Shown one piece after another: positions 26,523 to 55,035 of a DNA stretch of 64,000 nucleotides (positions are counted from its first letter, which is position 1; every line of letters starts with the position of its first letter). A model generated the notes under the pieces. The model saw nothing but the letters and a program-made list of their open reading frames with translations, ran no database searches and was not told the DNA's origin. Position numbers and translations under genes: made by a program. Source of the DNA: Amphiscolops sp. MND2022 (Eukaryota); the NCBI GenBank assembly GCA_964187785.1, contig OZ076421.1, positions 36,084,001 to 36,148,000 on the forward strand, given 5' to 3'.

Positions 26523-26534
26523 TGGTGACAGGAC
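26523..26534 (+). promoter_or_regulatory. PBS of element B (tRNA-Leu-like, short)
   Basis: TGGTGACAGGAC directly after the LTR CA; resembles Leu(CAG)-type PBS TGGTGTCAGGAG; lies in-frame inside gag (MVTG). Confidence 0.6.
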
Positions 26535-27626: not shown

Positions 27627-27633
27627 TTTAAAC
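27627..27633 (+). promoter_or_regulatory. -1 ribosomal frameshift slippery heptamer T TTA AAC at the gag stop
   Basis: GAT TTA AAC TAA has the X XXY YYZ register in the gag frame. Confidence 0.65.
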
Positions 27634-27636
27634 TAA

Positions 27637-30600
27637 TAAAGCCACGCCTTCAAACAACATCACCACAAAAACAACTCTCAGCAGATGACTGGCAGCATCC
27701 GCCGAGTCCAAAACCTATAAAAATTACAGTCTTCGATCACAACTCGACCAACAAAAACGACTCACATACTACAAACACACAAACTACCACACCCGATAAC
27801 CCCTCTGAGGACCTAAATGACTTACTCATGGATGCCCCAGATAACTACATACTCCGCCAAACCTTCGAACCTGAAATCGAGCAAGAAACAGAAAATCAAC
27901 ACCCCAATACTTCATACACTCAAGAAACACAAACAGAACACCCAAACACACAATTCACATCAACAACTCAAACTGAAAATGGAGCCATGTCAGGATTAAC
28001 AAAAACTCTTTTTAAAGCATCACCTGGGAAACAACCCCTCCTTGACAATGATGTTTTCAATCACCTAACTACAGATGAAGGCAACAACATCATGTACTTA
28101 AACCTCTCAACAAACCTAACCCTCAAAAAGAAACGTCATATGTATTATTTCCCCATGGATTTCGAAAAATTAACCCCGGATGGACTCATAGATACAGGCG
28201 CCCTCACCAGTGCCATTTCTGAAGCAGATCTCAATAAAATTAAACTACTATCAAACGAAGCAATCAAAGACACAGGTCCAGCACCAAACTTCCAAATCAT
28301 GGTGGCAAATGGTCTACTCGAACGCCCCATTGGAACTGTCCTACTTGAATTCGAGGTAGCAGACTTCCAATTTCAAGAAAATTTCATCGTCATGAAAACA
28401 CTACCCAATCCACTCATTGGATTGTGTTTTCTACAAAGACACAATGCCCTTTTTGATATTCGACAAGGAAGAATAACATTCCCATATTTGTAAATGCTGC
28501 TACGACCTGAACACACAACAAACACCCGAGTAGCAACACCTTTGTTGACTGAAACTACCTACACCCTGCAACCCGGAGAAGCTCTTGCAATCTCCAGCAA
28601 AATGCCCCATTTAATAGACCACAATGCAACAGGAATTGTGACTCCATCTTCACACATGGAGGAACACGAAAGCATTTTCATTACCTCCTCACTCAGTACG
28701 GTAAACAACAATGCAGTGGGTTATCAAGTGATTAACTTCTCAGATATGCTCTTCCTGTGGATACACACATGGCAGATTTCCGAGTACTAACCCCAGAACA
28801 AATCAAACACATCAAACCAGTTGACCCATCAATTCTTACCTTCATGATGCACCAACACATCGAAAATACGGATCTATACCTCAACCAACTGATGAAAACA
28901 AATCAATCGTCAGTCGAACAAGAAACGTACTGGTTCCATACACCTGAAAAACCCGGTGATCCGACCACATATACACCCATCCAACAAAGAATGTTTGTTG
29001 AACTCACAGAAGTTAAACAACTTGCACAACTAAACCCAAACGACAGCGAAGAATCAAGAAATTCTTCGACCATTTCTACTGGACCGACACCACTCTCAGC
29101 CCATTCGAAAAACAACACATTAAAGACATTCTTGTACAATATCACGATATCTTTGCCAGACATCGTTTTGATATTCGCACTAACATAGAATTTAAGGTTA
29201 AGTTAACGCCTAATGATGATAGACCAGCCTACAGCCAAAGTCTTCCAACGCCAATCAACCTCAATGATGATATAACTGTTGAACTGGCCCTACTCCATCG
29301 TTATGGCATCATCACGTCCTTACCTTTCTCTAAATATGCAAGCCCCACTTTGCTCAGCGAAAACTAAATGGACGTCTCCGCCTTTTGGTGGACCTTCGCA
29401 AAATCAACAATCTCATCACACAAGATTACGTAAACAACAACCACACAGTCAGCACTTTGTCGGACGCAGCACAGCACATGGCTGGGTAGAAGTTTTTTTG
29501 CAAACTCGATTGCTCCCAAGCATACCATTGTTTGCAGATGGCAGACTACCAGTCAATTCAGATGCTGGCATTTAATTTTGCAAGCCGAGCGTTTGCGTAC
29601 CGACGCCTTGCTCAAGGCTTAAGCCGCTCTCTGTCTGCTTTCTCATCCTTTATGAGAGAATACCTGGACAAAGCGATAAAAGCTGACCAATGCGCCCAAT
29701 ACGTTGATGACATTGGCATAGCCGCAAATGATTCAACCCAATTGTGCATCAACATCAAAACAGTCTTCGAATGCATTAGAAAAGCCGGCCTCAAACTCAC
29801 GATGGCTAAATGCCATTTTGGAGTCAAACAAGTCGACTTTTAGGACGAACAATCACCCCAGAAGGAATTTCCCCACAATCCGAAAAAGTCAAACAGTTTT
29901 TTCAGAAACTCAAATTTCCAAAATCTAAAGAAGATCTTCAAAGGTTTATTGGGTTTCTCAAATACTACAGAAACTACATTCCTCGGTTATCAGAAAAGCT
30001 TTCGCCTTTCTTCAAACTGCTCAAAGAAACTTCCCAGTTCTGTATACCAAATACAGTCCTAGACACTTTCAATGAACTAAACCAACAACTGGAAAAATCA
30101 TGCAGTCTTGCCCTCAAACAACCAAACAAAAACAAACAACTGATTCTAATGACTGATGCCAGTTTTACAGCAGCCGTCATGATTGAAGATGATCCTAACC
30201 AGAAACTTCAATCCAGAAGAAAAACCTATGCCCCAATCGCGTTTGGGTCAAAAACGTTCAATCCAACTCAAATCAAAATGTCCATCTACGCAAAAGAATT
30301 TTTAGCAATCTATTTTGCGTTTTCCGAATTTGGACACCTCATGTGGGGAAGTGTTTTCCCGTTATCGTCTTCACAGATAACCGTTCAGTAACACGCTTCT
30401 TCCAAACGAAAATAATACCACCACCTCTCTGGAATGCCTGCCACTTGGTCCTACAGTACAATTTCGTCATTGCGCACGTAGCAGGAGCCATGAACACAGC
30501 TGTTGATTTCCTTTCAAGAGCAGAAGTAAACCCGACCGAAAAACTCGAAATGAACATCCGAAATGATGTTACAACCAAAGCCATCGAAGTCAATATACAG

Positions 30601-32593
30601 TCCACAGGAGTTGCCGAGGAAGAATCTCTCTACTTTCTACCCGAAGAAGTTCCCTCAGAACAACAACTGTGGGAAGAGAAAGAATCACTTCGCAAAACAG
30701 CGAAGGAGGATACTCACAACGAACCAGAAAATGAAGTATCCGAACTCCAAAATTTCCATAAACCCACAGCTGGAACAATTGACTACAGAGAGTGTCACTT
30801 CAAAGACAATGCAAAAATACGTTTAGAACAAAACAACGATCCAGTTTTACGCAACCTTCGAGCAAAAATTCAAGGTGAACCATATGACGAAACTGCACTT
30901 ACACAAGAATATAGATATAAACACAACCTACAAAACATACCTCGTATCTAAATTCGACAGGACATCCTTATTAGAAGATACTACAATGACACGGGTATGA
31001 TCTCCCATTACCACATTCTCCTACCCCGACAACTCCTAGATGAATTCTTACATGCTCTTCATGGGCATAATGCAAACCACCCAGGTATCACAAAGATGAT
31101 TCAAGAAGCACGACAAAAGTACTATTACCCATGCATTGCCAAACACATCCGAACTTGGGTCACGAAATGTCAAATGTGCATACAAAACAAACGGATCAGC
31201 AATGACCTCCTCAAAACCGAACTACTCATTTGCCCGGAATGGGAGTTAGGTCCTGAGGATATATTGCAAATGGATGTTCTCCCGAACCTACCCTCAATTG
31301 GAGGTTATGACAATATCATCACAGCAATAGACGTGTTTTCACGATATCTGTTCGCATATCCAGTCACAAGAATCACTGTTGCAAGAGTTATCATGGACAT
31401 TTTATGCAAACACACATACCTACCCACAACAATCATCACAGATATGGGACCACAATTCAATTCTCAAAGTACAAAAGAAGTAGCTGCAGTTCTAAGTATA
31501 GAACTTAAACATGCCCCAACGAAACACGCCCAAACAATTGGACTGTTAGAACGCACTCATGCATCAGTCAAAGCACACGTAAAGGCCGCCACTGGAGAAT
31601 TCAGAAACAACTGGCATAAGTTTCTACCTTTGGCAGTCCTAAACCACAACACAACCTATCATGCAACACTCGGATGCGAACCCACAAGGGTCTTCCACGG
31701 ACGAAATCCGCACAATATACTAGATTTGAACCTTGGGTATAATCCAAATCCCCATTTCCAACCCTAAACCGAAGTAGCAGAAGAGATTCAAAGACGAATC
31801 GCACTACTTCACGATCAGACGAAGAAAAACATAATGCAATCTTACCTTAAATAAAAAGCTTACTATGACAGGAAAGCAAAAGCAGCACCTCTTACATCGG
31901 GGGATTATTGCTTTATCTTAAATCCGAAAGCCGACAAACAAGCGACCAAAATTCCTTTCAGAGAATTTTGTTGGGTAGGACCGTATAAGGTCGAGAAAGT
32001 CTTACCAAATAATAACTATATCGTCCGAAGATTGGGCACAAACAAAACCCAACTACTCCATCGTATTCGATTACGAATATACATCCCACAAGCGCCCTTA
32101 GCAGATAATTTCGTAAAGGAAACTGATTGGCAAAAAGAAGATACAGTCATTGCCCAAGATGATCTATATGCACAAACTTGGGACACTAATTTTGGATCGA
32201 GCCCTTTCGATTCTGAGCACGAAACCAATGATCAGCAAGAAGACATAGTGGAATATGAACCTGCTTCTCAACCCGAAATATACCGCCCTTCCTCCCCCGA
32301 AATTTCTCAAAACAGTGGGGGGATCCCAGCAGAACAACCTGCTGTGACTGATGAAGAGCCCCAAATAATCACAAAAGAACTTACAGAAATTGAAAATCAT
32401 GAGCCCATTCCAGAAACTTCAAGAAATCCAGAAATCTCACAAGATACCCCAACCCAAAATTCCCCAAAAACTCCCGAAAATAACCCAGAAATTGATGCAG
32501 AAAAAACAGAAAAATCAGTTAACAAAAGAGGTGAAAAGTACAACTTACGCCCAAACCCAAACCCTAACTACTCTGACTCATACAGATATTTAA
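27637..32593 (+). pseudogene. pol: element B pol (protease, dUTPase-like insert, RT, RNase H, integrase with GPY)
   Basis: LIDTGA 28191; YVDD 29700-29711; TDAS ~30152; HPG...C2 zinc domain ~31078; QMDV/TDMG/LERTH triad; WVGPY ~31978; KYNLRPNP end; many frameshifts and stops. Confidence 0.95.
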
Positions 32594-35500
32594 AAACGAA
32601 TCAAGAGACTCAAAGACTTTAACTAGATAACAGTCTCACTCGTTCTTCATTTTTTCCTTTTTCTTACCTCCAACTGAAACTGAAGGCCTAATTCTCTTTA
32701 TGAGAAAGATAAATAACTACCAACAAGACGTAATCAACCTGATTCGACAAAAACAACAAAACCAAACAAATAATAACAAAGGCACACATTATAAATTGAC
32801 AAAATACAATGAAAAGTATTGAGAAATGTTAGCACGTTCATTTATCACCAGAATCTTTCTTAGCCTTCTTGCCCTTGATTACTAGCTTCTTAGCCCCGCT
32901 GGAGCTACTGTCAGAAAGAAACAGGATATCTGCTACTACCCGAGGAACAGAAAGTGTCGGAGTCGAAAGTTTAGGACTAGAACCTTTGGGTTTACCACGT
33001 GATTCAGCTCCTCGAGCTCTGCCTGGAAAAGGAGTAGGTTGCACAAATTTACCACTTGAAAGGATAGGCCCTGGAGCGGATGTTTTGGGGCTAACCACAA
33101 CGGAAGTCCATAAAGCTTCTTCATCGGAGATGGTACATGTATAACGCGACTCCAGTTTGTTAAACAGTAGGCGCCGTCGAGAAGAACAGGAGGCAGTGAC
33201 ATCCAAACCGAAAACGTCGCGTCAGACAGTAAAGCATTGCCTTTACCAAGCAACGAGAAAACAGGTGAGATTGTGCGCGGATTTGAAAAAAGCCCAGACA
33301 CATTAGGAATCCCAGATAAAGAGGACTGGATACTTCGAACAGACGATCTAAATTCATCGGCATCAGAAGCTAGCCGAGGAAGTATCAAGGTGAAATGAGG
33401 CGGGAGTGAGGAATGATTGGCAAGGCTAAGACAACATAACTTGAAGGCAAAGAACAGGTTCTCACGGCAGTGCATTTCATAGTAACCAGACAAGAAATCC
33501 ACCCATTCTCTGTCATGTTCAATAATATTGGATCTAAACTGAGCGACAAAGGAGCGATATTCGCTGTAAATCAGAGGTTTTACATTACTGCTGATCCATT
33601 TACTCTCCACAAAGAAATCACAAAGCATCTCGCATTCACGAGAGTAATCTTCTTCCTCGCCATGCCGCACGATAGCTTCATCGAAGATGGAAAATCCTCG
33701 AACCAATTTGGATTTGCAAACTTTATGGCTCAATAACAACGCACAGATGTTTCTGCAGAAACACAATGCTTGCTCCACAAAATGGGTAGGTGTCGGAATG
33801 TCACTCTCAGCTACCAGATTAGCAAAATCTCTATTACGGAGAAAATCTGCAGCAGTCTTTAAAGGATGGCTATTTGATGAGAGATCAATTGACAGGAAAT
33901 TATCCCAATCAGACACTTATCCGAGAAACGAATCCGGAAGGATAGCTTGCAACTGTGAGTAAGTAAATGTTGCGAAAGCGCTGTAAACGCGGAAGATGTC
34001 TGGTGATGGCCCATTGACGTCTTTGAAGGCAGAATTATCTAAACACAAACAAATTGAAAATGGGGTAAGAAACCCGATGACAACCGCAAAAAGGAAAAAC
34101 TTACAATGCAAGAGAACATTCCGAATCAGGAACAACTTCGCAGGATACGTCTTGTCCTTGTAGATAGTCTCATAAATGCTTTTGGGCTGTAAAGAAACAA
34201 ACAGATATGAAAGGTGAAGCGAATAAAAGAAGGAGGAAAGATAAACGAAACTCACTTCTTTCATGTGGTAACGGAAGTCTTTGATCCTGTCTGCGAGCCG
34301 GAGGTGCAAAACAACGTGGGACCAGTTCATAGATAGCTGACCAAGGATAGTGGGAATATCTTCGTGACGAAATTCAAAACAGTGAATGGCCTGAAACAAA
34401 CCACATAATGATTGCTACTTGATTTGCACTGATGAAGACTGAAAATTATGATGCATCATGCTGAATTCTGAACACAGCATAGCATGGAACACAGCATACA
34501 GTATAACCTATGAGGATTATGCGGAAATCAGAACAAAATTGCATGACAAGAAAAACCCTATGCAGAAAAGTACAAAAAACAACATAAAACTAGTGCACAA
34601 CGTGCAGCGCAGTATAATGCAAAGTGAAATGAAATTATGCTGTTCTGAAGAAGAAACAGCATATTGGAATGATTATTATGCAGTTTTCAGAAGAACTTAC
34701 GCCCAAACCCAAACCCTAACTACTCTGACTCATACAGATATTAAAAAACGAATCAAGAGACTCAAAGACTTTAACTAGATAACAGTCTCACTCGTTCTTC
34801 ATTTTTTCCTTTTTCTTACCTCCAACTGAAACTGAAGGCCTAATTCTCTTTATGAGAAAGATAAATAACTACCAACCAGACGTAATCAACCTGATTTGAC
34901 AAAAACAACAAAACCAAAGAAATAATAACAAAGGCACACATCATAAATTGACAAAATACAATGAAAAGTATTGAGAAATGTTAGCACGTTCATTTATCAC
35001 CAGAATCTTTCTTAGCCTTCTTGCCCTTGATTACTAGCTTCTTAGCCCCGCTGGAGCTACTGTCAGAAAGAAACAGGACATCTGCTACTAACGGAGGAAC
35101 AGAAAGTGTCGGAGTCGAAAGTTTAGGACTAGAACCTTTGGGTTTACCACTTGATTCAGCTCCTCGAGCTCTGCCTGGAAAAGGAGTAGGTTGCACAAAT
35201 TTACCACTTGAAAGGATAGGCCCTGGAGCGGATGTTTTGGGGCTAACCACAACGGAAGTCCATAAAGCTTCTTCATCGGAGATGGTACATGTATAACGCG
35301 ACTCCAGTTTGTTAAACAGTAGGCGCCGTCGAGAAGAACAGGAGGCAGTGACATCCCAAACCGAAAACGTCGCGTCAGACAGTAAAGCATTGCCTTTACC
35401 AAGCAACGAGAAAACAGGTGAGATTGTGCGCGGATTTGAAAAAAGCCCAGACACATTAGGAATCCCAGATAAAGAGGACTGGATACATCGAACAGACGAT

Positions 35501-38500
35501 CTAAATTCATCGGCATCAGAAGCTAGCCGAGGAAGTATCAAGGTGAAATGAGGCGGGAGTGAGGAATGATTGGCAAGGCTAAGACAACATAACTTGAAGG
35601 CAAAGAACAGGTTCTCACGGCAGTGCATTTCATAGTAACCAGACAAGAAATCCACCCATTCTCTGTCATGTTCAATAACATTGGATCTAAACTGAGCGAC
35701 AAAGGAGCGATATTCGCTGTAAATCAGAGGTTTTACATTACTGCTGATCCATTTACTCTCCACAAAGAAATCACAAAGCATCTCGCATTCACGAGAGTAA
35801 TCTTCTTCCTCGCCATGCCGCACGATAGCTTCATCTAAGATGGAAAATCCTCGAACCAATTTGGATTTGCAAACTTTATGGCTCAATAACAACGCACAGA
35901 TGTTTCTGCAGAAACACAATGCTTGCTCCACAAAATGGGTAGGTGTCGGAATGTCACTCTCAGCTACCAGATTAGCAAAATCTCTATTACGGAGAAAATC
36001 TGCAGCAGTCTTTAAAGGATGGCTATTTGATGAGAGATCAATTGACAGGAAATGATCCCAATCAGACACTTATCCGAGAAACGAATCCGGAAGGATAGCT
36101 TGCAACTGTGAGTAAGTAAATGTTGCGAAAGCGCTGTAAACGCGGAAGATGTCTGGTGATGGCCCATTGACGTCTTTGAAGGCAGAATTATCTAAACACA
36201 AACAAATTGAAAATGGGGTAAGAAACCCGATGACAACCGCAAAAAGGAAAAACTTACAATGCAAGAGAACATTCCGAATCAGGAACAACTTCGCAGGATA
36301 CGTCTTGTCCTTGTAGATAGTCTCATAAATGCTTTTGGGCTGTAAAGAAACAAACAGATATGAAAGGTGAAGCGAATAAAAGAAGGAGGAAAGATAAACG
36401 AAACTCACTTCTTTCATGTGGTAACGGAAGTCTTTGATCCTGTCTGCGAGCCGGAGGTGCAAAACAACGTGGGACCAGTTCATAGATAGCTGACCAAGGA
36501 TAGTGGGAATATCTTCGTGACGAAATTCAAAACTGTGAATGGCCTGAAACAAACCACATAATGATTGCTACTTGATTTGCACTGATGAAGACTGAAAATT
36601 ATGATGCATCATGCTGAATTCTGAACACAGCATAGCATGGAACACAGCATACAGTATAACCTATGAGGATTATGCGGAAATCAGAACAAAATTGCATGAC
36701 AAGAAAAACCCTATGCAGAAAAGTACAAAAAACAACATAAAACTAGTGCACAACGTGCAGCGCAGTATAATGCAAAGTGAAATGAAATTATGCTGTTCTG
36801 AAGAAGAAACAGCATATTGGAATGATTATTATGCAGTTTTCAGAAGAACTTACGCCCAAACCCAAACCCTAACTACTCTGACTCATACAGATATTAAAAA
36901 ATGAATCAAGAGACTCAAAGACTTTAACTAGATAACAGTCTCACTCGTTCTTCATTTTTTCCTTTTTCTTACCTCCAACTGAAACTGAAGGCCTAATTCT
37001 CTTTATGAGAAAGATAAATAACTACCAACCAGACGTAATCAACCTGATTTGACAAAAACAACAAAACCAAAGAAATAATAACAAAGGCACACATCATAAA
37101 TTGACAAAATACAATGAAAAGTATTGAGAAATGTTAGCACGTTCATTTATCACCAGAATCTTTCTTAGCCTTCTTGCCCTTGATTACTAGCTTCTTAGCC
37201 CCGCTGGAGCTACTGTCAGAAAGAAACAGGACATCTGCTACTACCCGAGGAACAGAAAGTGTCGGAGTCGAAAGTTTAGGACTAGAACCTTTGGGTTTAC
37301 CACTTGATTCAGCTCCTCGAGCTCTGCCTGGAAAAGGAGTAGGTTGCACAAATTTACCACTTGAAAGGATAGGCCCTGGAGCGGATGTTTTGGTGCTAAC
37401 CACAACGGAAGTCCATAAAGCTTCTTCATCGGAGATGGTACATGTATAACGCGACTCCAGTTTGTTAAACAGTAGGCGCCGTCGAGAAGAACAGGAGGCA
37501 GTGACATCCCAAACCGAAAACGTCGCGTCAGACAGTAAAGCATTGCCTTTACAAAGCAACGAGAAAACAGGTGAGATTGTGCGCGGATTTGAAAAAAGCC
37601 CAGACACATTAGGAATCCCAGATAAAGAGGACTGGATACTTCGAACAGACGATCTAAATTCATCGGCATCAGAAGCTAGCCGAGGAAGTATCAAGGTGAA
37701 ATGAGGCGGGAGTGAGGAATGATTGGCAAGGCTAAGACAACGTAACTTGAAGGCAAAGAACAGGTTCTCACGGCAGTGCATTTCATAGTAACCAGACAAG
37801 AAATCCACCCATTCTCTATCATGTTCAATAACATTGGATCTAAACTGAGCGACAAAGGAGCGATATTCGCTGTAAATCAGAGGTTTTACATTACTGCTGA
37901 TCCATTTACTCTCCACAAAGAAATCACAAAGTATCTCGCATTCACGAGAGTAATCTTCTTCCTCGCCATGCCGCACGATAGCTTCATCTAAGATGGAAAA
38001 TCCTCGAACCAATTTGGATTTGCAAACTTTATGGCTCAATAACAACGCACAGATGTTTCTGCAGAAACACAATGCTTGCTCCACAAAATGGGTAGGTGTC
38101 GGAATGTCACTCTCAGCTACCAGATTAGCAAAATCTCTATTACGGAGAAAATCTGCAGCAGTCTTTAAAGGATGGCTAGTTGATGAGAGATCAATTGACA
38201 GGAAATTATCCCAATCAGACAGTTATCCGAGAAACGAATCCGGAAGGATAGCTTGCAACTGTGAGTAAGTAAATGTTGCGAAAGCGCTGTAAACGCGGAA
38301 GATGTCTGGTGATGGCCCATTGACGTCTTTGAAGGCAGAATTATCTAAACACAAACAAATTGAAAATGGGGTAAGAAACCCGATGACAACCGCAAAAAGG
38401 AAAAACTTACAAAGCAAGAGAACATTCCGAATCAGGAACAACTTCGCAGGATACGTCTTGTCCTTGTAGATAGTCTCATAAATGCTTTTGGGCTGTAAAG

Positions 38501-39001
38501 AAACAAACAGATATGAAAGGTGAAGCGAATAAAAGAAGGAGGAAAGATAAACGAAACTCACTTCTTTCATGTGGTAACGGAAGTCTTTGATCCTGTCTGC
38601 GAGCCGGAGATGCAAAACAACGTGGGACCAGTTCATAGATAGCTGACCAAGGATAGTGGGGATATCTTCGTGACGAAATTCAAAACTGTGAATGGCCTGA
38701 AACAAACCACATAATGATTGCTACTTGATTTGCACTGATGAAAACTGAAAATTATGATGCATCATGCTGAATTCTGAACACAGCATAGCACGGAACACAG
38801 CATACAGTATAACCTATGAGGATTATGCGGAAATCAGAACAAAATTGCATGACAAGAAAAACCCTATGCAGAAAAGTACAAAAAACAACATAAAACTAGT
38901 GCACAACGTGCAGCGCAGTATAATGCAAAGTGAAATGAAATTATGCTGTTCTGAAGAAGAAACAGCATATTGGAATGATTATTATGCAGTTTTCAGAAGA
39001 A
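32544..39001. repeat. tandem triplication of a 2152-2153-bp unit (32544-34695, 34696-36848, 36849-39001)
   Basis: Same ORFs recur at offsets 2152 and 2153; junction ttcagaagAActtacgccc has 2-bp microhomology; copies differ by scattered SNPs and a 1-bp indel. Confidence 0.97.
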
Positions 39002-41530
39002 AACAGCATGCCAAATGAAATTATGCTGTTCTGAAGAAGAAACAGCATATTGGAATGATTTTATGCAGTTTTTAGAAGAAAACAGCATGCCAAATGAAAT
39101 TATGCTGTTCTGAAGAAGAAACAGCATATTGGAATGATTTTATGCAGTTTTCAGAAGCAAACAGCATGCCAAATGAAATTATGCCGTTCTGAAGAAGAAA
39201 CAGCATATTGGAATGATTTTATGCAGTTTTCAGAAGAAAACAGCATGCCAAATGAAATTATGCCGTTCTGAAGAAGAAACAGCATATTGGAATGCTTTTA
39301 TGCAGTTTTCAGAAGAAAACAGCATGTCAAATGAAATTATGCTGTTCTGAAGAAGAAACAGCAGTTTGGAATGATTTCATGCATTTTTAGAAGAAAACAG
39401 CAAAACAAATGAAATTATACAGTTTTGGAAAAGAAACAGCAAACAGGATAGATCTTATATAGTTTTCAGAAGAAAACAGCATATTGAACGAGGTTATGTT
39501 GATTTGGAGAAGAAAACACATACCGGAATAATTTAATGCAGAAAAAAATTACACCGAACGAATTTATGCTGTTTAGACATTGAACAGTAAAGTGAAATAT
39601 TTGTAAATTACTTTTCGCAACTCAGGAAGGTTGCTCATCCAAGCGGAATCCAGAGCAGTGCGCAACTTCATGAGGAAGAAATGTAAAACGCTATGAAGAT
39701 CATATCTGTCAAGAATCTTGATAGCCGATCCTCCTGCAAAGACTTTGTACAAGTCTTCATAACCGAAAGTCGCACAAGGTGACGGAGCTTGGTGTAATTC
39801 AGTTTGTAAGGTCTTGACAGTCCGCGCATCAAAACCAAGCAGAGAATAGATGCTAACGGGGGTACTCGTTATAGCCAAGAAACAACCAGCAACTTCAAGG
39901 ACCTTTTTAGCTTCCATCAGGCTGGGGGTGGAGCTTCCATCCCTGTAAGTAGAAGGTGATTGAGGACGTTCCCAGACCAAAACGACACAGACAGTTTGGT
40001 ACATTCAGGTGTAGTTTGAAGCTGCAAAGAACAGCTTCCAGATTGACTGATGGCCTGGGCAGTGAATCGCAGCAATTCCCGGAACATATAGACCATTACT
40101 CCCTAGGAAAAGGAAAGAATGAGTTTAGATGACAAATGGTAGATAATAGACAATTAGTAAAACAATACTTACAAAGACACGTTCAGGACACCAATTGAAC
40201 TGGGGAACTTTTGAAGGCCCACAAATCTCTGACCCGAGACTACTCCAAAGTGAACGCACGACGTCCAATCCTCCGCCATGTTGCAATCCGGTCATTAAAA
40301 TGCGGATCTGTGAACAAATGACTGCAGAAGGATCAAGTATATCTACATCGGAGGGGAGTTCGTACTGTCCAGGTAGCAAATAACACTCTCCCAAAGTAGG
40401 AGCAATTGGGTAAGTCATTCCGGCCTTCTCCCGTGCTTCATCCAGAGATGGACCGACTAGCTCTTGCTCATTTGTCCCGTACAAAGGAAGTCCCGGGGTT
40501 TCCATAAGGAGCCGATGTTCCCGGACTAAGGGAGCTTCAGTTCCATAGTGGGATAGGATCTCCAATGCGCCTTTGGTTTTCAACGACAACTCAATGCTGC
40601 ACACTCTGCATCTCCACTTGTGTGGGTTGGCTTCAGCGTCCATGGGGGCTGTAACGAAGAATTTGAAAACAGGATGTTTCCTGAACATCTGAACGTTTAA
40701 CTGCAATCGTGGTTTGGAACGCCCAACTGTTCCAGATTGTCCTTGAAAGTTGGCCCCTGTAACAGTCTTGTCTCCGGCCGGCGCTGAAAGTCTTTCACGA
40801 CGCTGGATGCGCCGGGTGGCTGGGTTGCGCTTCGTTTTCGTTACTGCGACTTGCGATGAAGACGGTGGTTCCGGGATTCTGTCTTCGGACAATCGGCTGG
40901 ACGATGACTGTTGCTGTGATACCGGCGCTCTGGTAACGGTTTCTTGCAGTTGAGTACTGAGAGATGCAGTTGCTTCAGAGACTAAAACTTGAAAGCGCCG
41001 CTCTAGGGCCTCCAAATCAGAACTAGTTACGAAATTCATCGTAGGATCTGTGGAGGTCGCTGTGCGGGTAATTGACCTATCAACCTCTAGCCCTGTAGGG
41101 GCAGTAACAACAGGGGTTTGAGCTCTGTTCAGGAATGCAGTGAATGGGGAATGAACCTGTTGTTTTCCTCCGGAAGGGTTATAACTCGGCGATCCTGGAG
41201 TTGGCTCAACCTCAGTGGTCTCATTCCTGGGAGTCAAACGTTGGGTTTCGTCTCTAGTCGAAGCATCTCCAGTGACGTCGACCATATCGCTATCGTGAGG
41301 TACCCGAAAGGTGGACAATCCAAAAGGAGGGAAAGCGGTTTGGGCGAATGAAACGGAACTCCTGTCAAAAGAATGTGCAATTCCGTCTAGGTCTGCTTGC
41401 CTGTGAGACTCTAGATTAGTTTGAAGTTGCTCGGGAGTTGATTGGCGAGGCGGGTTTGAGAACGCTTCAAGAGGAGCCAAATCTCTAGTTGGAGTACATT
41501 GTTCGGCGGAAACGTGGAGTTCGAAGGAGT
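37143..41530 (-). pseudogene. element B antisense spliced accessory gene: BED-type zinc finger plus hAT-transposase-like body, about 1090 aa reconstructed
   Basis: Exons 41530-40173, 40102-39612, 38696-38562, 38492-38411, 38344-37143 with GT-AG introns of 70, 915, 69 and 66 nt; KWRCRVC...EILSHYGTE finger; one frameshift and one in-frame TAA; last three exons repeated in the triplication. Confidence 0.8.
38930..39540. repeat. 79-bp tandem array of paired ATGCTGTT...AACAGCAT inverted motifs in intron 2 of the accessory gene
   Basis: ttatgctgtt at 38941, 39021, 39100 and onward at 79-bp steps; about 6 good and 1-2 degenerate units, each two ~40-bp subunits. Confidence 0.95.
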
Positions 41531-43027: not shown

Positions 43028-43994
43028 ATGTATGCAACTCCGATAACAAAGGCTAACAGTACTGGAGGACGAATGCAGTCCGACGCAGACCTAGATCTGA
43101 TAAACATATCAAGCAGTTCAGACGAGGGATTTGTAGTGGAACCTTTGACTTTAACTGAAATGGAAGATAGGTTCAGAGTCGCCCCTTCATCCATTGCGAG
43201 CATAACCGTTGCCTTCATAGGATCTACGGAAGCTTCTTTGTTCGTGACCAACTCAATGGAAACAGAATCACGAGGATGCATAAATACAAGGGGGACAACT
43301 ATCGAGTCCAAATTGATGGATTTGTTGAACGATATACGTGACATTTCGCCAGTGACATTCATCGACAGCTCAGAAGAAGAGATGGACCCATTTCCAGAAG
43401 CAAACTTTGCGAATGTGTAAAGAAATGCATATGGGCGTCCCACACAAAGAGTATCTCCTATCCCTAAGACCCCAAGTTGCAAACCCAGGACAACAACCAG
43501 AAGCAACACGTGACATCAATCCTCCGACGATACCTAGTCAGGTGAGTGCTTTCACAGCATATGTTGCCCCGCAACAAAGGACAGCTGACTTTAATGCACG
43601 ACCAGTTCAACAAGCCGCATACCTGCCGTTGCCTGTGCCATTCTACCCCAATGGGTGGAACAATCAAGGTTTTGGGCCGGTTAACAACAATGCACACTCA
43701 ATCCCAGCAAACAACGCCTTTCCCCAGAAGAGACCAATACTCCAGATGAATCCACCCGTTATGCCCGAAGTTGCGGAATACTGCTCCAGTTGCATGAAAA
43801 CATACGATCACATTGCAGTTGAAACCCTGACTAGCTACATTGCCTGGTCAGAATACCCTGAAGAAACTATTCGAGATCGGAATGTGAGGTCGAGAGCTTT
43901 TTTGGACGGGTTTGGAGCAGCCCTGATCTGTTTTAAAAATGCTGGACTGTCGCCCGGTTACCCTTGCGAGACGTCCGGAGTGCAGCACCGGTAA
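43028..43994 (+). pseudogene. element B sense accessory ORF3: acidic protein with SIM-like segments and conserved RxRAF(L/I)(D/E)G C-terminus
   Basis: DLDLINISSSSDE and PVTFIDSSEEE; frameshift near 43410; C-terminal RSRAFLDGFG matches RKRAFIEGMQ in element C; stop lies inside the 3' LTR. Confidence 0.65.
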
Positions 43995-45700
43995 GCAGAT
44001 CAGCTCTGCATCATCCTTCACAATGCCCGAAGACCCAATGCCAGCCTTATAGACTTTGGAAAACATTCAAATTAAACCAAAAACTGAGAAATTTGTTCTC
44101 AAATAATTGCTCTCGTTGCTATTTCTTATGTTTGTTTAAGTTAAACCGTTAGCTGATGTTGGTTTATGTGGACTTACGACCTGTTTGATTTATATTTGAC
44201 AACGGCATAACCGTTGAAAAAAGACAAAGAAAAAGACAAAAAGCTCAATAAACTAGTCATTAGTGACGATGTTACTAATATGACCAGATCCAAATCTCTG
44301 TTTTGTTCCACCGTCATATTGTGGAAAATTGTGTTATACATCATGATTATGCAAGAAGTGTATGAAATCAGTATGATGTTTTATTTTGAAAGCAGCATGA
44401 CAAAACATCCGTCCAAAATAGTACTAAATTATGCTGCTTTATGCGGTTTGTATTGATTGGCATATACGGTATTTTTAGTAAAACAGCATAATATGGATAT
44501 ATATACTGTTGCTTATGCTTTATACCGTATTATACTGGAATTGCTCAAAAACAGCATGATGATTTAACCCAGAAACAGCATACGCGGAAATCACCCAAAA
44601 ACAGCATGATGAGTTAGCTCAAAAACAGCAGATGAAGGAAATTCAGGAAAACAGCATGATGTTCATACTCGAAAACAGTATAATGAACGCCAGCAGCACG
44701 ATGCAGCTCAGTTATACTGTATTATGCGGTTTTCATAAAACTGCATATGCAGGATTATATTGGAAAAAAGCATAAATTGCATAATAATACACATTAATCC
44801 GCCACTACATTGGTGCTATATTTAGAACTTCTAGGAACATGATGTCATAGTTTATTTTTAACTTCTGACCCTAGAAACATGACGTAATGATGATTTTGTA
44901 AAATTGCTGGTCATGTTACTAAAAATAACACCCAATGAAATCATTATGTAAGGTACACTTGAAATCAGTTTTTCCCACGATCATTCCTACGAGATAACAC
45001 ACAGAAATCAGTCACTCCAAACCAGAGAAACGCGTTCCACCAATTCCAAACCTTGCAGTTTCTTTCATTGTAAAGATAACTCTGAATTTTCATTTCAACA
45101 ATATCTTTGAAATTCAAAGATTTCTTCAACTAGAAGTTGTTTTCAACATGGGAAATAGAAGGAACAGACGTACACGGAGAAATGAGTCTCAGTCTCCAGA
45201 GAGAGATGAGAATATGTCAGCAACAAGCCTTCTACAAGGTAATGCGACTTTAACTAATGATTCTGAAAATGTTAATACCGTTTTTGACAGGAACTTAGGT
45301 AGCGAACTAACGGAACCATCACAAATCAGTAATGAGATAGAAAGAATTTCTCAAAGGCTATCTGAACAAAACAGCAACAAGATGACACAGATTGAACATC
45401 AGCTGAATAGCAAATTTGAAGAAATACTTAAAGAAATCAGAGCAAACAAAAACTGTAACACAACAACTGATGAAGATGATGTTGAGAGTAGACAGCCAGG
45501 TCCTTCTAACTCAAAACCCAAGGGTCTCAGGAACAAACACGCATCAAACATGACAATAGAAAGAGATCAGGATGATCGGTTTTACTCGTCTGAAATGAGT
45601 GAATTAAGACAACCATATACTCCGATTGGAATTACAGATGAGACTCTGGATGAGACCATAATAATAAACTAAAACAGACAGGAAAACGCCGATCATCACA
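43948..45700 (+). repeat. element B 3' LTR (1753 bp)
   Basis: Homologous to 24802-26522; followed by TSD ATAAT; retains gag 5' ORF 45148-45672. Confidence 0.92.
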
Positions 45701-47509
45701 ATAATGGGCATTTTTTCAAAAATTTCCGGATATCGACATGACTCTATAAAGCTAATTTCCTGTAGTAGACTTCTATCGACAAAACTCTATGTTTTGAGTA
45801 TGCTTAATCTGTAAAACGTTATTGAGTTGTAAGCTTTCTCCTACACATAAATTAATAACGGCTGGAAACTAACAAGTTTACTATTCAAGCATTAGACTAA
45901 TTCTTTTTTGTCATATTTGTCAAAATTCAGTCTAGTCCAAACTCGTTTGGAAAATTAACTATACCAAAATAGCATTATGGTAAGATTCCGTTCACTGTTG
46001 AAAAGTATACATGAATAACATAAGAAAAAAACGCCATTCATTCTTTGAATACGTTTATTGATTCGATTTTTCGTTTTCAAGTTTTTATGATCAAAATTTA
46101 AAAAAAACTGAAAAATTCCGTTGTATTTTAAAATTTTGATTACAACTGACTTGAAAAGTGAACAATTATTGTTTCAAAGAATGAATGTTTTTTTTCAAAA
46201 AAAGAAAGGTTCCTTTTTTATTATTCGTTCCAGCAGTGAACATTATCTAATATAAATGCTATTTTGCTATTTTGCAATTTTACATATTGAAGAGATTTGA
46301 TTGAGTCCAAACGTTTTCAACATGAGGATTCCAATTCTAAATATTGAGTCAACTTAAAATCTCGAATCAAAACTCCAAATTTTTTGGTTTCTTTTCAATG
46401 TATTTCGAATTCTTTAGGCGATTTTGAACTGCTTCGAACTTTGAGACACTTTGTAAAGAGGATGACATCCATAATTCAAGATAACGAAACGAGACTACTC
46501 TCTTTGTTGCAAACATCGTCTGTTGAGAATTTGAAAATCTTTCAAGTTGCTCTCTCACTGGAACAACAAATACAAAGGGAACATCTAAACAAAAGACTCT
46601 CAAACACTCCGCAGTCAATCTACGCATCAACTGTCCTGAAAAAAAAACAAAGAGAACTTCAATTATTCAAAATCGGTTTTTGCAGTTTTTTGAGAGAACT
46701 ATTTAGCAACCAAACAATGGCGATACTTTCTGACTATGCAAAATTTCTGTCAATATTTTGTCACTTTTTGTACTTTTGTCATCTAAAAACTATGCAGTTA
46801 AGCTTTTTTAGAAAAGATTCTGGATGTTTTTTTTTCTCTCATGCTGATTGTTCTTGCAAAGTAACTAGAGAATCTTTCAAGCATATGTTTTGACAGAATA
46901 CACTTACAAATTCCCAGTCGTTGATTTTCATCTGAGCATTAACCTCGAAAGTACACCGAGAAGTCTAAAAATTGACAAAATTTTTGCAAAATTTTTTCAA
47001 AGCTTCTTTTCTCCACAAATAATAGCTGCAGCTCCAATCGGTTTTCTGTTCCTGAAAGCCCTTTACCTAAGCTTTCAAATGCACATTAGTTAGGTCCCGA
47101 GCTGCGCCGGGCCTTTCAAATGTCGGTTGAACTCATAACTGAAGCTTCATTGAAAAAAAACTTCTATGTTGGCAAACTGTGTTACTAGAGTGGGACAGTA
47201 AATTAGCAAACAGTTGCTCAGTTATTGAGAAAAAACGAATTTTCTGAAATGTACTTTTTTGCAATTTTTCACTTTTTTTCAGTTATTTTTTTGCCAGTGG
47301 CTCGGAAAATCTATATTGACACAAATAACAATTCACACCAGATAGTCCAATAGATTGCCGATAAGAACAACAATTTTTCGTTTTCCTCTATGCTTTTTGC
47401 GTGTCGTAATTTATTATTGATTGCCAAAAAATTGCAGTCGTCATTTGAGGACGAAATCGCTGTCGAGGTTAAGATTAACAAAATTGTTTCAATGTTTATT
47501 ATTTTGCTG

Positions 47510-48435
47510 TGTAAGATGTAAAGTCCGTATGTTTCCTTAGATCACAAGCGGACATAGAGTCCTTTTTTGAAAATTTCGTATTTGCATTTTTCCACAAATT
47601 TCCTACCCCGCTCTCATTTGAGGACGTACACGGCTCAACGCTCTGTTGGATCAAAGGGAAATTTTCCACCATGTTTTGTATTTCAGGTATTATTCTCTCG
47701 CTAATAGCACAACTAATGGCCCTACTAATCTGAGTTTGCATGAAGTCCATCATTGTCTCCATTTCCCGAGACGTTCTAGCATTCATCTCGCCCGAAAGCG
47801 CACTAATCGATTCCATTAGTCTCTCTTCTCTAACGGGCTCATTTTTTTACTGATATCTCTGATTTCATTTTCTTGGGAAGAATTTTCTCTAATCGTGAAA
47901 TCGTGAAATGGCTGAAAGTCTCGCTGTCCACCTGGGACATTGATGAGACTATCCAACTCTGTCTATGGAGTTGGAATTTCCATCCCCTAACATCACGTCC
48001 ATGTTGCCGTAATCGGACAACATGTCTAGTTCCCTCGACTTCCTGGCCTTAGCCTTTTGTTTTCTTGTGGAAGGCATAAAATGTTTCTACAGGAGGAAGT
48101 ATTTAAATTGTTCCTGTAACCGCGTATAGTAGGAGAGCTTTACAAAGAAACTTGTATAAATGCAAGGTAACTGAATAACAGTGGTTCAACTAAAATTGTG
48201 TCTTACAAAGACCCGGTCAGGGTTTATATACCCAAGCGAGCATGACACGCAATTTTCTAACGGTCATGTTACCAAAAATAGTTATTGACTATAACATTAC
48301 CTCATTCTAAATATAGGAAATGCAGTCACAGGTGTTTTGCGGAAGCGACGAGATCAAAGGCGCGTCACGGTCGTAAAGGGAGGGGGGTGACGCATGTCCT
48401 AATATGGTCTAGCAACGCATTCTTATATATCAACA
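47510..48435 (-). repeat. element C 3' LTR (926 bp)
   Basis: Aligns with 61505-62423 with visibly more differences than the B LTR pair; TATATAAA on minus near 48225; gag-like 5' ORF fragments. Confidence 0.85.
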
Positions 48436-48912
48436 TGAAGCAACACTTTACATGTGAACATTACATGTATTCCAAATTAGGTCACTCAGTTTATATGGCC
48501 GTACAAGGCCCTTCTCATTTTCGCACCAGAAAGGGAATTTGAATTGCGCTATAAGCGCCTTTGCTGGTATTTCATCAACAAGAGGTCTTGTGTATGAATA
48601 GAGCACCTTTCAACATATAACTAGCATCGACTGAACTGATTGACAAATAGGGCCGGCTAGTCCGCGTGGCCTTACTCGTCCTTTCCGAGTAAAAATAAGC
48701 ACAGCCATATAATTGATAAATAAGCATCCAATACCAACTGGTGACGGCTACGTTAGCTACACTGGACAAGCAATTTTTTGAACGCGTTTCTTTTCTACCT
48801 GTCAGAATAGCTTGCTGACAATTGGAATTTAACATAGTAAACAATAAAAACTAAATACATCAAACAATACTATAAATTCAAAACAGTATCAAAGATTCAA
48901 AGGTTTTAGTTT

Positions 48913-49757
48913 TTACAAAAGCAGAGTTCCGGGTAAGGCGATATGCCTTGTGTGGTCTATCGTACAAATATTGCCATCGCAGGCGGCCGCCTGCGACACT
49001 CCCCCTGGTAATAATAGGAAAGTGCCAACCTGCATTCCTTCTATAAAGGCCCTCTTCCGAGCTTCTAGCTGATCCGCTGTTTCTCCCAAAACGGCCGCCT
49101 TGTGCAATTAATCTGTAACTGCCTCATTTTGAATCTGCATGGTAGATTTCCCTCATATCACAGTCTGAGTAATTGGCTAACGGAATGTATGCATCGATTC
49201 CCATTCCTTGGAAATGGTTCGTAACTGTCTCCAAGGATTGCTGGGTATCTGTGCCCTGAATGTCCACTGGGTGTGGTTCGTAAGTTGTTCCCCTCTCTTC
49301 CGTTGGGGGCGACATGGGAGTGTCTACCATGGGGATATTTTCTCTACACAGTTTGATTGGATGGTTATTACCGACTCGGTCGTCTCGCAGTATCGGGCCA
49401 ATTCCCTTTCCCTGTGAGAAGAGAGATTGGTCAAGAGTTGGTCTCGAGGCAAAGCTCGACCCAGGAGTCTCATATCTTGGCAGACTGCAGACTGTAACGG
49501 AGGGGGCGTCGTTTCTAATTTTCGATGCTGTAGATGGACCAGGGACAGGGATGGGGTGATGATAACTCCATCTCGACGCATTGGGCCATCATCATGATTT
49601 CGTCATCTGTTTCTTCATCTTCTGATGACACATGAAGGTCTAGAACGGATGTCATGCTCAGATCACATATTTCGTCTTCCTCGTCGCTGGATAGGCAAAT
49701 TAGATCCACACCTTCGGGTGCTGCGCCTTGGAAGTCTTCAGGAAATTGTTGGGCCAT
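48913..49757 (-). pseudogene. element C ORF3: acidic SIM-like protein
   Basis: VDLICLSSDEEDE and VLDLHVSSEDEE near the N-terminus; GETADQLEARKRAFIEG near the C-terminus; frameshifts and stops between. Confidence 0.65.
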
Positions 49758-50212: not shown

Positions 50213-51277
50213 TTAGTTGTTCCCGTCTTGTTTATCATCTTTTTCGCAATTTTGAATGCAACTGACTAATTCAGTTTGATTTAAGCAGGGTTCCTGTCAG
50301 TCTGAAGGTTGGGAGGTAAATGGCTAATTTTTTTCCTGATTCCTCGATAGTTTCTGCCTCATACTTTGCCGGGATCTCATTTCCCCGCATTGCGTTTCAT
50401 TGATGAAGTTTTCCTAAATATTCTTTGATATAAGCCGCCTTTCGCGTTGTTGACCGTCGATCAACTCCAATTTGCCTAATCCGGCAAAGAACTTTCAAGG
50501 ACTTCATCTAGTGCTTATCTCCTCTTGATGGCCACTTGAAATCTTCAAGAGGTTGCATCTATGATTGAAGGCCACGCGCGTCGACTTGTCAGTGACGACC
50601 AATAGGAATTCGAATTTAATCCTCGCATCCCAAAATGGCGAATCAATAAGTAACCAGCCAAATCATGAAATAATAAGATAACTAAAATGATAACATAATG
50701 GAAATTGTATTATTCGAAATATAAAGAAAGCGGATTTCTCTGGCAGATTCCATCCAAGAAGTAGTTTTTGTAATTGTAAAAACATTTGACATCAAATCCA
50801 GCTTGCCACGAACTCCAATTTCTCTGCTTTTGCAGTATCATCAAAATCATAGTTCATCATTTGTCACATTGTTTAGTTCTTTTATCACTTTTTTTGAATC
50901 TTTAGTTAGTCACAACACTTTCCTTCGTATTTACTCTCCCTACCTTCTGACCATATATGGACAGTGGACATCTCCGCTAAATTTAGCTGAGCATCGTCAA
51001 GAGCCCCTGGGCTCTTTCCTCCCGATTATTATCACTTCTTGCTTCTACCCCACACACCAACAGGTACAGGTAAGCTATCTGATCTTTGTTTCATTTTGAA
51101 CGGAAATGGATTTGATCAGGACCTGCCTGTTCACGTTCATTTACTTCCTGTTCATTTAAGTAAGCCATTATGGGCTTTTCGTCATATATTTTGATTCACT
51201 TCTAGAAGATTTGTTGAGCGATATCATGGACTTATATTCAGGAAGTTACCCGCTAAACTTTAACCCTTTCCGTTTAG

Positions 51278-54200
51278 ATATGGCAAACGAAGGGGTTATG
51301 ACCGAATCCACTAATCCTGCGGTTGACCAGGATAACGAAGAACAAGTGCCAGTCCACGAGAAGAATGAGCCGGTGAAGGACGTCCGACCCGAGTGTCAGG
51401 CTTCTAATTTGAGCTGCTCCACTGATGAGAGCGTCACTGCTTCATTGAGAGGACTGTTTCCAATTTCTCAGCCCCCCAACTAGAGCAACCAGTCCAGACG
51501 CCCGGAGAGAGTTTTCCTGAGACAACTAAGACCTCTGAGTCTGAGCAGTTGTAGGTCACCCTCGATCACAATATCTTTCCTGATTTTGACGATGAACTAC
51601 ACCAGTCATCCGGGAACAGCGATGCTGAGCAGGCACTCTATAGGGATAAAGTGTTTGACACCGACAGAAAGTTGAGTCTAAGTGGTAGAGAAGCCATCAG
51701 AAAGTACTTTACCACCAATGTGCCAGTCGGTCTGCCTACACGCCACGCATCCGCTGCGTTCAGCGAGGGCCAGATTCACACAATCCTGCGGACCATAGAC
51801 GTCGAATCTTTGATTTCATCGTTCCACATGATGAAATCGTTGTTGATAAAGGTGACCGAGGGCATTCCTCTAGACAAACGTCCGTCTCGGAGCATTCTCT
51901 GAAGAGCTGATACGCCTGGTCTTGGATATGAGTCAAGTTCATGAGAAGATAGTTCTGCCGTAGACAGTGATGTGTATACAAGTGGGGCCCCAAATTCGGA
52001 TGAGGATTTTCGCTACATCGAGACTGCCTCTGAGACCAATCCGCCAGCCGTATCTGCCTCCAAGACCTTGGATACGTCAACGACCCATCCAGATCAAACT
52101 AGAGTGTTAACTCCGAATTCTGGTAGCAGCTATAGCAGTTGGGATTATCGGCCGTTAGCGTCCCTGGCTCAAGCGTAATCATCTGTCGCAGTCGTCACCA
52201 GCCCTCACGCAAGCGATGAAGAATGCTGTGCAAGCCGGGCAAAGTCATGAGGGACGCCTATTTTAAAGGCATTCAATGGACGAGAACCTTTTTCTCTGGG
52301 CCGCTTGATCCCATCCACAACCGGTATAAATTTTACTGCCAGATATGCAAAACAAACATATCGATTTATTCCAAAGGAGCTCGGGAAATTCTACGCCATT
52401 ATAAGACTGAGAGACATTTGCGTCGTGACCAACGTTGGAGGTTTGAACTCCTCTGTGAAGTTGATGCGGACACGGGCCGAGTGACTAACCAAGTCCGAGG
52501 AAAAGATGGATATATCCTCACCCCATAGAGTTGGAAAAGGAATGCCGCTCTTCATTGACGCCCCTCTCGTGGACAGAGGAGATAAATTTCCTTTTTCCGA
52601 CGATTATATGTTTCACTTCAGCCGGATCGTCAAGTCCAGACGAATTCCGCATGACGACACAGATTTCTTTAATTAGTCTTTTCGTGCCGTATGGAGGAGA
52701 CTTGGCTTTGCTACGAAATCTGTGGACTCAGTTCGGAACTTTCACCAGCCACCAAGGGTTCTTCTCCGACTTTGACTGGCGAGTCGATAACCTCACCGTA
52801 AGTATTAATTCCATGTTTGGGTAGGACGGGTTCTCCCGGTTAACTGGTTTATCTGAGTTGATTTGTTTTCAGAAAATCATCCATCACACTTCCTCCGTTG
52901 CACCGAGGACATCGCCGTCCAAGTGACCAAGGAAGGAACCTATTCTTTGGAATTTACAAGGCTATTGTTATATGGCAGTGCGATTCTGGTGTGATGATGT
53001 CATCCAGCGAGTGGAGTTACGCCGTCCTCCTCTTGCTTCGGCCTATCCAGGAAACTTCCTTGGGCCAATTTCACGTTTGCTGTCCTTCATCTCTGTAGGG
53101 CCCAATCTTGTCAGCTTCTCAGGCTATCCTTCTGCAAACCCTTGACCAGAGCGGCTTTTCAAGCACACTGTCCAATTCCTCTTCCGATTTGAAGTTTTGT
53201 CCTCACCAAGCCTCATGCACCAGAAGTACGAGAGTTTCTTCGGGAATGTAGACTTCTTTTCCCAACTGAAGTACGTGGTCGTCTTTCTTAATGATAGCCT
53301 GGACCAGAATTGGATCCTTGGGTGTCCAAACTTTTCAAAGGTTAGATTCCTTTCCTTTCCATAGTGATGTGTATTCAGGTCCGTATAATAGGGGTAGGTC
53401 ATTGAGCTATCTGTGGTCACACGTTAAAGGCAAACTTTTGTTTTCTAGGCTATTACTGCTTGCGATTTGGATCTTCAAATCATTCCTGCTTTATGCACTG
53501 AGATGGTGACAAAGTGGCATATCATCCGGGATTCAATAACGCGGAACGCTCCCCCACAAGCTGGCCAAGGAATCAGAAACCGGGTAATTTACATTTCGTG
53601 TTTCATTTGAGTTGCTTTCCAGGGACACCTATTTTAAGGACGATTCGTTCCATAACTTAAGTTTAGGTATTCTTGTGGTTTTAATGTGATAACACCAGTA
53701 GTCTTCAAAGCCTTAGTTGGTGTTTTTATTCCCAAGGTTATCATTCTAGTTTTGTATTATAGCCGCAGAGCATGGAGTGGATGATCTTGATGGACGAGTA
53801 CTTCGTAGTCAAACTGGAGATCTTCAGCCTTCTCGTTCGCGATTGTGAGTATAGATTTTCCGTTAACATCCGACTTCCCGGTCCTTCCTCTGGAAAAAGG
53901 TTGATGTTTAGATGTCAAGTGTTTTGATCGCGGTTTAACTGAGCAACCCGATGCAGCTTCCTTTGTCCACGGGCAATTCTGTCGTTTCCTGCGAAAGCTC
54001 TGCTCCCGCGCCGTCCTTCCCAAATGCATTCCTGATGACGTTAATTGGACAGGGTTGTTTTAGTTGTACCCTGAAGGTCTTCGACTGCTTTCTGGCCGGG
54101 AAATTTTGAGCCGTTTGAAGTTGAAATCTGACATCGATGTCATCTGTAGGGCCAGAGTCCAGCAGGCACGAAGCGAAGCTGATAACAGTTCTGGCGATAT

Positions 54201-55035
54201 TGATGCCTTGATAACTAGTGAGAGAGACAATTTTGCTGCAAAGGCCCGATGTTACTTCATAAATCTCTTGGAGATTTTGTTGCGCGACGTCCATTTAACG
54301 GCAGATATCGTCCATAGGATGGCTTGCTTCGACCCGCACGTTTTAGTTTCCTTACCGATGGAACAAATTACCTTTTGCTTTAGCGCTTTATTCCAAACCT
54401 TCTGTTTGCGTGGTTGGGTCCAACGGGCCTCGGAGTCCGATTATCGCGATGAGTCTTTGGAGTTTGTGGAGTATTTCCGTACTAGTTTCTCTCGCCTCGA
54501 GGATCAGCCTGGCCAAGTGAAAGACATAGTCAGCTTTCTCATTGTCCCTCCTGATTTGCGAAGTCGCAAGAATTTGTTCTATCTCTTCAGGTCGAGTTGG
54601 CTCTGTGTTACCGAGGGTGGAGTAAATCTTCCTCCCATTAGGTTCTACGAGGTGCATAATTCTAACATCAAATGCCGCTTTATCGATATGCTTTTAACGG
54701 CGCAATCTTATATGACTTGCTACTCTACTAGTCTGCCAAACTAGTGCCCTTCTGAGGCGTCCATGTGCAAATTGCGAGAAACGGATGAGCAGTTCATTTC
54801 TGGGCAGTTTGCTGAAGACCCTTGGACGCATGTGGATACTTTTGGACGAGATACATTTTTGAAGAGATTAACTACCACTTTCAAAAGGCTCAAATCTACT
54901 CCTGTTAAGGCTGTTACTTTGGCTTCTTCGTCCGTGTCTTACACAGTGGGCGGCACTGTTCTTCGTGGATCTGGAAGGGCTCAAAAGCTGGCTTTCTTTG
55001 GGATATCCTTTCTTCAAAAGTTTTACAGGCCTTAG
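51278..55035 (+). pseudogene. element C antisense spliced accessory gene: BED-type zinc finger plus hAT-transposase-like body
   Basis: Exons 51278-52797, 52873-53393, 53449-53583, 53763-53844, 53912-~55035; ATG at 51280; FYCQICK...EILRHYKTERH finger; MACFDP, DESLEF and NLFYLF segments align with element B; many stops. Confidence 0.8.

Follow-up and report, generated by a model that had tools for sequence, protein, structure and literature searches.

Several Ty3/gypsy LTR retrotransposons carry reading frames in addition to gag and pol, and the closest known arrangements are those of the rotifer elements with their ORF3 types, plant Ogre and planarian Burro. These extra ORFs lie between pol and the 3' LTR and encode env, a GDSL esterase, a DEDDy exonuclease, Ub/SUMO-like domains or products of unknown type (PMC5408684, PMC6431247). 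The accessory gene described here, ORF B, has the same general location but differs in that its product is a non-membrane protein, predicted to be disordered, that has a SIM-like motif and ends in a domain of no recognised class, and in that the gene overlaps the start of the LTR. The nef-, sag- and bel-type 3' accessory genes of retroviruses are also the last sense ORF and overlap the start of the 3' LTR; with these the analogy is one of position only, and no homology was found.

Proteins with SUMO-interacting motifs (SIMs) are used by DNA viruses to counter SUMO-dependent repression, and such regulators, among them HSV-1 ICP0, HCMV IE2 and KSHV K-bZIP and K-Rta, have a hydrophobic core with Ser and acidic residues after it, as in IVISDS (PMC3174244, PMC12751080). 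The IVISDS sequence of ICP0, Daxx and IE2 resembles the first motif of ORF B, and only one of the seven SIM-like sequences of ICP0 is strongly identified as functional (PMC3174244). In contrast to these regulators, the ORF B product has neither a RING nor a bZIP, is borne by a retrotransposon, shows no sequence homology to them in our comparisons and has a SIM that is putative. It shares with Slx5 and RNF4 a SIM-like motif within a disordered, Lys-free region that precedes a Cys-containing C-terminal domain, but this domain is a predicted CxxC-helical hairpin with three conserved Cys rather than a RING, and there is usually one conserved SIM. Finally, VANC of the Arabidopsis VANDAL transposons is an accessory protein that has been proposed to act against host silencing; it comes from a DNA transposon, binds DNA sequence-specifically and has no homology to ORF B that we could see (PMC5735166, PMC10398659). 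Of the genes in the elements described below, it is the antisense ORF rather than ORF B that would come closer to VANC. A literature search, confined to main texts with few subscription papers among them and lying outside Repbase, Dfam and supplements, returned neither an accessory protein of a retrotransposon in which a SIM is conserved nor any account of the ORF B/C element family.

A Ty3/gypsy family with an accessory gene at the 3' LTR

ORF B is carried by element 1, a complete but decayed retrotransposon that occupies positions 24802-45700 of the plus strand of the window, the whole 64-kb stretch of DNA that was analysed, and that was delimited by its LTRs, target-site duplication (TSD) and pol order. 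Its terminal direct repeats are 91% identical, the LTR ends read TG...CA, and the 5-bp TSD ATAAT is found on both sides; a 5-bp TSD is also present in several fetched copies. Pfam matches to protease, RNase H and integrase occur in the gypsy order, the YVDD and GP[YF] motifs are present in pol, and the order protease-RT-RNase H-integrase is observed. The elements that host ORF B and its relative ORF C are thus Ty3/gypsy LTR retrotransposons. The 5' LTR (24802-26522, plus strand) opens with sequence corresponding to the final codons of ORF B and includes the ATG of gag at 25970; a PBS-like TGGTGACAGGA is found 3' of this LTR within the gag reading frame. The gag and pol genes, identified from ORFs and Pfam matches, extend over 25970-32619 (plus strand) in several broken frames. 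They are followed by the first piece of an antisense accessory ORF (40125-41285, minus strand), which has a CxxC...H zinc-finger-like motif and is divergent from ORF B, then by ORF B itself (43028-43994, plus strand), and lastly by the 3' LTR (43948-45700, plus strand), whose first nucleotides fall within the [LV]-S codons of ORF B and in which the 5' end of gag is present again from 45148 onward. Element 2 is on the minus strand and faces element 1. Its ORF C (48913-49757, minus strand) belongs to the same gene family and has two frameshifts as well as stops, and its 3' LTR (47509-48998, minus strand, with approximate ends) starts inside ORF C. A 1,594-bp tandem is present at the gag/LTR end of element 2 (60830-64000).

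The same plan recurs among relatives. Eleven 20-kb stretches were fetched, every one picked through its ORF B/C-type gene, and the recurrent order in them is LTR, gag, pol, the antisense ORF in pieces and then the ORF B/C-type gene, which is the last sense ORF of elements of about 16-17 kb and runs into the 3' LTR. The LTRs are 1.6-1.9 kb where complete, gag is about 550-570 aa and pol up to about 1,700 aa; one stretch has no LTR pair, and three have partial or tandem repeats. In several copies the LTRs are 99.3-100% identical, indicating that the family has moved recently. Many ORF copies in the genome lie 14-20 kb apart on the same strand, a spacing that suggests head-to-tail arrays of elements, one of which is seen in L114+L115. 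The LTR also holds the first 185-200 or so codons of gag (seen in the window and in L110+L111, L116+L117, L120+L121, L144+L145 and L146+L147), and every 3' LTR therefore includes a truncated gag ORF. The [LV]-S codons within which the 3' LTR starts do not vary at the DNA level in any of the subfamilies listed, so the invariant [LV]-S dipeptide near the C-terminus is not evidence of a protein motif and was rejected as one.

ORF B had originally been assigned to the env position. It does lie beyond pol and at the 3' LTR, but in the window is some 10 kb past pol, beyond the antisense ORF, and overlaps the LTR start. The accompanying statement that the protein has neither signal peptide nor transmembrane helix is borne out by a maximum 19-residue hydropathy of 0.82-1.52 among ten family members, and an env-type fusion glycoprotein is ruled out by the lack of a transmembrane helix or signal-like stretch in 10/10. 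The same ten proteins have a pI of 4.4-4.7, and a basic NLS-like cluster is missing from five of them, including all four members of the B clade.

Neither window copy is the single ORF that the original prediction took it to be. When translated against unbroken copies, 43028-43994 falls into two frames, 43028-43420 (130 aa) and 43413-43994 (193 aa), with a frameshift somewhere between about 43413 and 43495, and the sequence of ORF C (49757-48913) is divided among three frames that contain in-frame stops. All four of the motifs that had been quoted are present, both of those in C within 49757-49515, although in window ORFs that are themselves broken, and the segment YSDCD of ORF C arises by reading across a frameshift, as unbroken copies have a CxxC there, like B. 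Elsewhere in the genome ORF B is unbroken at 6 of 30 loci (321 aa) and ORF C at 24 of 30 (278-279 aa), while four further protein searches gave at least 125-146 scored matches per query, most of them stop-free. Pairwise dN/dS is 0.25 for ORF B (36 close pairs; 42 distant pairs between subfamilies are synonymously saturated) and 0.21 (126 pairs) and 0.11 (127 pairs) for ORF C. Neutral evolution, which the original prediction had named as grounds for abandoning it, is thereby ruled out in favor of purifying selection, and ORF B/C is a real, selectively maintained accessory gene.

A profile search returned 520 representatives at 50% identity. At least one protein of the family, P0172, has a best match of only 45% in this genome, and other hosts therefore probably have members of the family too. 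Fifteen family clusters were looked up, and none has a name. The ORF B/C proteins, which belong to a system of a known kind, constitute a new and unannotated protein family, and one that diverges far faster than gag or pol: between the B and C elements pol is 57% identical, whereas the ORFs align over just 63 aa at about 27% identity.

C-terminal domain, N-terminal motif and lysine desert

The C-terminal segment that B and C had been said to share represents true homology, with a BLASTP alignment of 63 aa (E 8e-6) and an hhalign match over 68 columns (probability 97.3, E 1.7e-11). Only these 65 or so C-terminal residues can be aligned between the two proteins, and they form a CxxC-helix-helix-Cys domain, encoded in ORF B by 43782-43967 (plus strand) as CxxC, helix, loop, helix and Cys. 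Among 92 diverse sequences both Cys of the CxxC are invariant and the third is nearly so. AlphaFold models the domain as a CxxC knuckle with two helices (mean pLDDT 76, core about 90), and zinc binding by it would be a guess. Searches of Pfam, PDB sequences, the ESM Atlas and fold libraries gave no clear match to the family or the domain, the best fold-search match having a Z of 5.7 and an rmsd of 2.7 over 52 aligned residues. No RING is apparent from Pfam, from the three near-invariant Cys or from the helical hairpin model, and the protein is therefore not itself a ligase. Overall, the N-terminal three quarters of the protein are predicted to be disordered and the C-terminus to fold as a small CxxC-helical hairpin.

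The first SIM-like motif of ORF B, DLDLINISSSSDE, is encoded by 43088-43126 (plus strand), with the hydrophobic core at 43097-43108 followed by Ser and acidic residues, and that of ORF C by 49671-49709 (minus strand). Its conservation was assessed in a set of 305 proteins, of which 260 have the C-terminal domain and 129 also a long N-terminus, these last falling into 27 clusters at 50% identity. The pattern scanned, in which a hydrophobic core is followed first by Ser and next by acidic residues, was written after the motif had been seen. It is present in 17 of the 27 cluster representatives, against 0.95-0.97 expected from shuffles, which rules out a chance motif; since the clusters share ancestry, this figure demonstrates conservation and not independent origins. 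The same pattern matched three times in a control scan of about 23,200 residues, made up of 27 ORFs of the gag, pol and antisense types. The ten representatives that lack it comprise two whose core contains Pro, two from a clade with a degenerate first motif, and others that appear truncated or decayed. A reversed pattern, acidic then hydrophobic, occurs in 5/27 against 0.46 expected, and its carriers include P0212 and P0236, both of the degenerate-first-motif clade. The codons of the first motif vary synonymously, so the constraint acts on the protein, and constraint at the level of DNA is ruled out.

Conservation of the SIM-like segments across the family, as originally proposed, thus holds for the first motif, which is kept across lineages whose intervening sequence cannot be aligned. 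The description of the motifs as tandem stands in part. In B the second motif, PVTFIDSSEEE (43349-43381, plus strand), is conserved within the clade, with a score of 2.61 compared with 1.27 for the linker, but in C it scores 0.84, within the background of 0.52-0.92, so that the tandem arrangement is clade-limited and not family-wide; the second motif is also kept in close C members and is degenerate in the most distant members of the B clade. Some further linear motifs surpass the SIM in conservation, namely HPIxLC and TPxSPP (D[TS]PxSPP) in C and PVPFYP in B, and an acidic helix, ExELMDLL, is also strongly conserved in the B family.

SIMs are loosely defined motifs, and the pattern fits the definition of the parallel type (PMC12751080). 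In the 17 of 27 clusters the motif has, as that source describes for parallel SIMs, a core of four residues of which three or more are V/I/L, with acidic or phosphorylatable residues after it. The location of the motif in a disordered region is supported by prediction for C only, in whose model pLDDT is below 50 over residues 17-47. The Ser are the most invariant positions, and branched hydrophobics directly precede them in most clades, while some clades are without the hydrophobic core. The fetched exons of host PIAS-like loci, intended as a positive control, did not contain the pattern, and a complex prediction run without alignments for a host-like SUMO (P0164, 12-94) and ORF B residues 8-47 scored 0.02; neither result was weighed for or against binding. 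On the strength of the conserved pattern, the ORF B product probably binds SUMO via its N-terminal motif. The host genome encodes SUMO, together with two SP-RING genes, one of them PIAS-like, and genes with Piwi domains. The nearest named relatives of this SUMO come from two acoels (83% and 80%), which makes the host most likely an acoel. In several host genes, moreover, ubiquitin-like repeats in tandem are joined to one more domain (L095, L097, L099 and L109).

A conserved lysine desert in the B clade is a new observation that was not part of the original prediction. Twelve B subfamilies, represented by 38 proteins with identities between them down to about 30% or less, have 16 K against 136 R in 3,005 N-terminal residues. 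Unbroken B copies have K-free runs of 248-256 aa, with no Lys where base composition would predict about 12 (P about 4-8e-6). In the gag of these elements, by comparison, K makes up 7.4-8.5%. Acidic disordered regions are generally lysine-poor. The desert is weaker in the C-type clades (P 0.007-0.17), and a Lys-free run of 150 aa is reached in 9 of the 27 family representatives. The dead ORF B of the window has Lys at three in-register positions that are Lys-free in the unbroken copies, consistent with decay after selection had ended. Lysine deserts, in which a Lys-free run covers 150 aa or more or else 50% of the length, as in the B clade, have been linked to proteins of the ubiquitin system, including Slx5, a subunit of a SIM-type ligase (PMC10665810). 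The desert is thus suggestive of work in the vicinity of ligases.

Candidate roles of the ORF B product

That SUMO scaffolds the piRNA-guided silencing of transposons is documented for Drosophila (PMC8490990), not for acoels. The reading that we tentatively prefer, and hold to be possible, is that the ORF B product is a SUMO-docking factor that would weaken the SUMO-dependent silencing of its own element. The motif would likely act as a parallel SIM that is strengthened by phosphorylation of CK2-type Ser, and would dock onto SUMOylated silencing complexes. The C-terminal domain may oligomerise or recruit a host factor, making the protein a competitor or an adaptor, and the loss of Lys could shield it from modification while it is positioned beside SUMO or ubiquitin ligases. 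A SUMO decoy or adaptor directed against silencing had already been envisaged in the original prediction, and such a role would be in keeping with the conserved motif and the selected ORF. TRIM28 and PML are vertebrate-type factors and hence poor models for an acoel host, and the tandem arrangement is not general.

The ORF B product could instead be a transactivator of the element's own promoters, with its acidic N-terminus, dotted with hydrophobic residues, as activation domain and the apparent SIM binding a coactivator or general transcription factor, or SUMO just for recruitment, although this is rather unlikely. Activation domains rarely hold one core-S-S-acidic register over such distances, the loss of lysine is left unaccounted for and no DNA-binding domain was found in ORF B/C. 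The antisense zinc-finger-like protein may bring the protein to DNA, and this divergent partner ORF is present in both window elements and most of the fetched ones. The low pI, the disorder that is predicted along with a conserved amphipathic helix, short and acidic, and a 3' LTR position like that of retroviral regulatory genes are also consistent with transactivation.

Less probable still is an adaptor resembling the STUbLs, whose SIM would capture SUMOylated silencing factors and whose CxxC-helical domain would recruit a host ubiquitin ligase to destroy them. Viral SIM-dependent ligases exist (PMC3174244), and a protein that combines a lysine desert with a SIM placed in disordered sequence and with Cys in its C-terminal domain echoes Slx5 and the RING ligases (PMC10665810), but there are three near-invariant Cys and no RING, the desert is mainly limited to the B clade, and one SIM is conserved rather than an array. 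We consider it very doubtful that the protein has a role in the transposition cycle and not in silencing, as an adaptor that depends on SUMO or phosphorylation and serves nuclear entry, the assembly of particles or the choice of integration site. Its co-inheritance with gag-pol in all subfamilies examined, in elements that were themselves picked via the ORF, and its conserved proline-rich linear motifs would suit such a role, while the gene is separate, has its own likely promoter region and is outpaced by neither gag nor pol, diverging far faster than both. Finally, it is highly improbable that the motif is a mere spacer or patch for CK2-type phosphorylation, or interacts with some unrelated partner, with function residing wholly in the C-terminal domain, for although Ser are the most invariant positions and some clades have lost the hydrophobic core, branched hydrophobics are kept directly before Ser in most clades.

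The SUMO-docking reading may be extended to the antisense gene, which is found in the window at 41285-40125 and downstream (minus strand) in element 1 and at 51226-55035 (plus strand) in element 2. A likely splice donor is predicted at the end of its first piece, and a part of it is present as three tandem 2,153-bp copies (99%) at 32542-39001. The antisense ORF gave no match in a Pfam search; its CxxC...H motif resembles, we presume, a BED finger. In B-clade elements repeats of the 9-mer AAACAGCAT occur in the LTR as well as in a tandem array inside the antisense gene, with stretches at 25368-25652, 38960-39566 and 44481-44649 of the window; there are 26 sites in the window, 35 in L120+L121 and none in two C-type elements. 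By analogy with VANC, these repeats could be a clade-specific binding array. In the degenerate-first-motif clade (L140+L141, L146+L147), residues 57-68 or so of the antisense protein are themselves SIM-like, [IL]VELSS[NT]TDTE.

The two genes might then form a counter-silencing cassette, in which an antisense zinc-finger protein would recognise the element's repeat and a SIM-bearing, lysine-desert adaptor would neutralise or remove SUMOylated factors; this is unlikely as it stands, but if true it would be an animal-retrotransposon equivalent of ICP0 or VANC. Irrespective of mechanism, the ORF B/C proteins represent a large, selected and unannotated family with a short motif that is directly testable with peptides. 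In acoel genomes LTR elements predominate (PMC9911081); a counter-silencing gene would offer a testable reason for this, and the cassette, if true, could help to explain that dominance.
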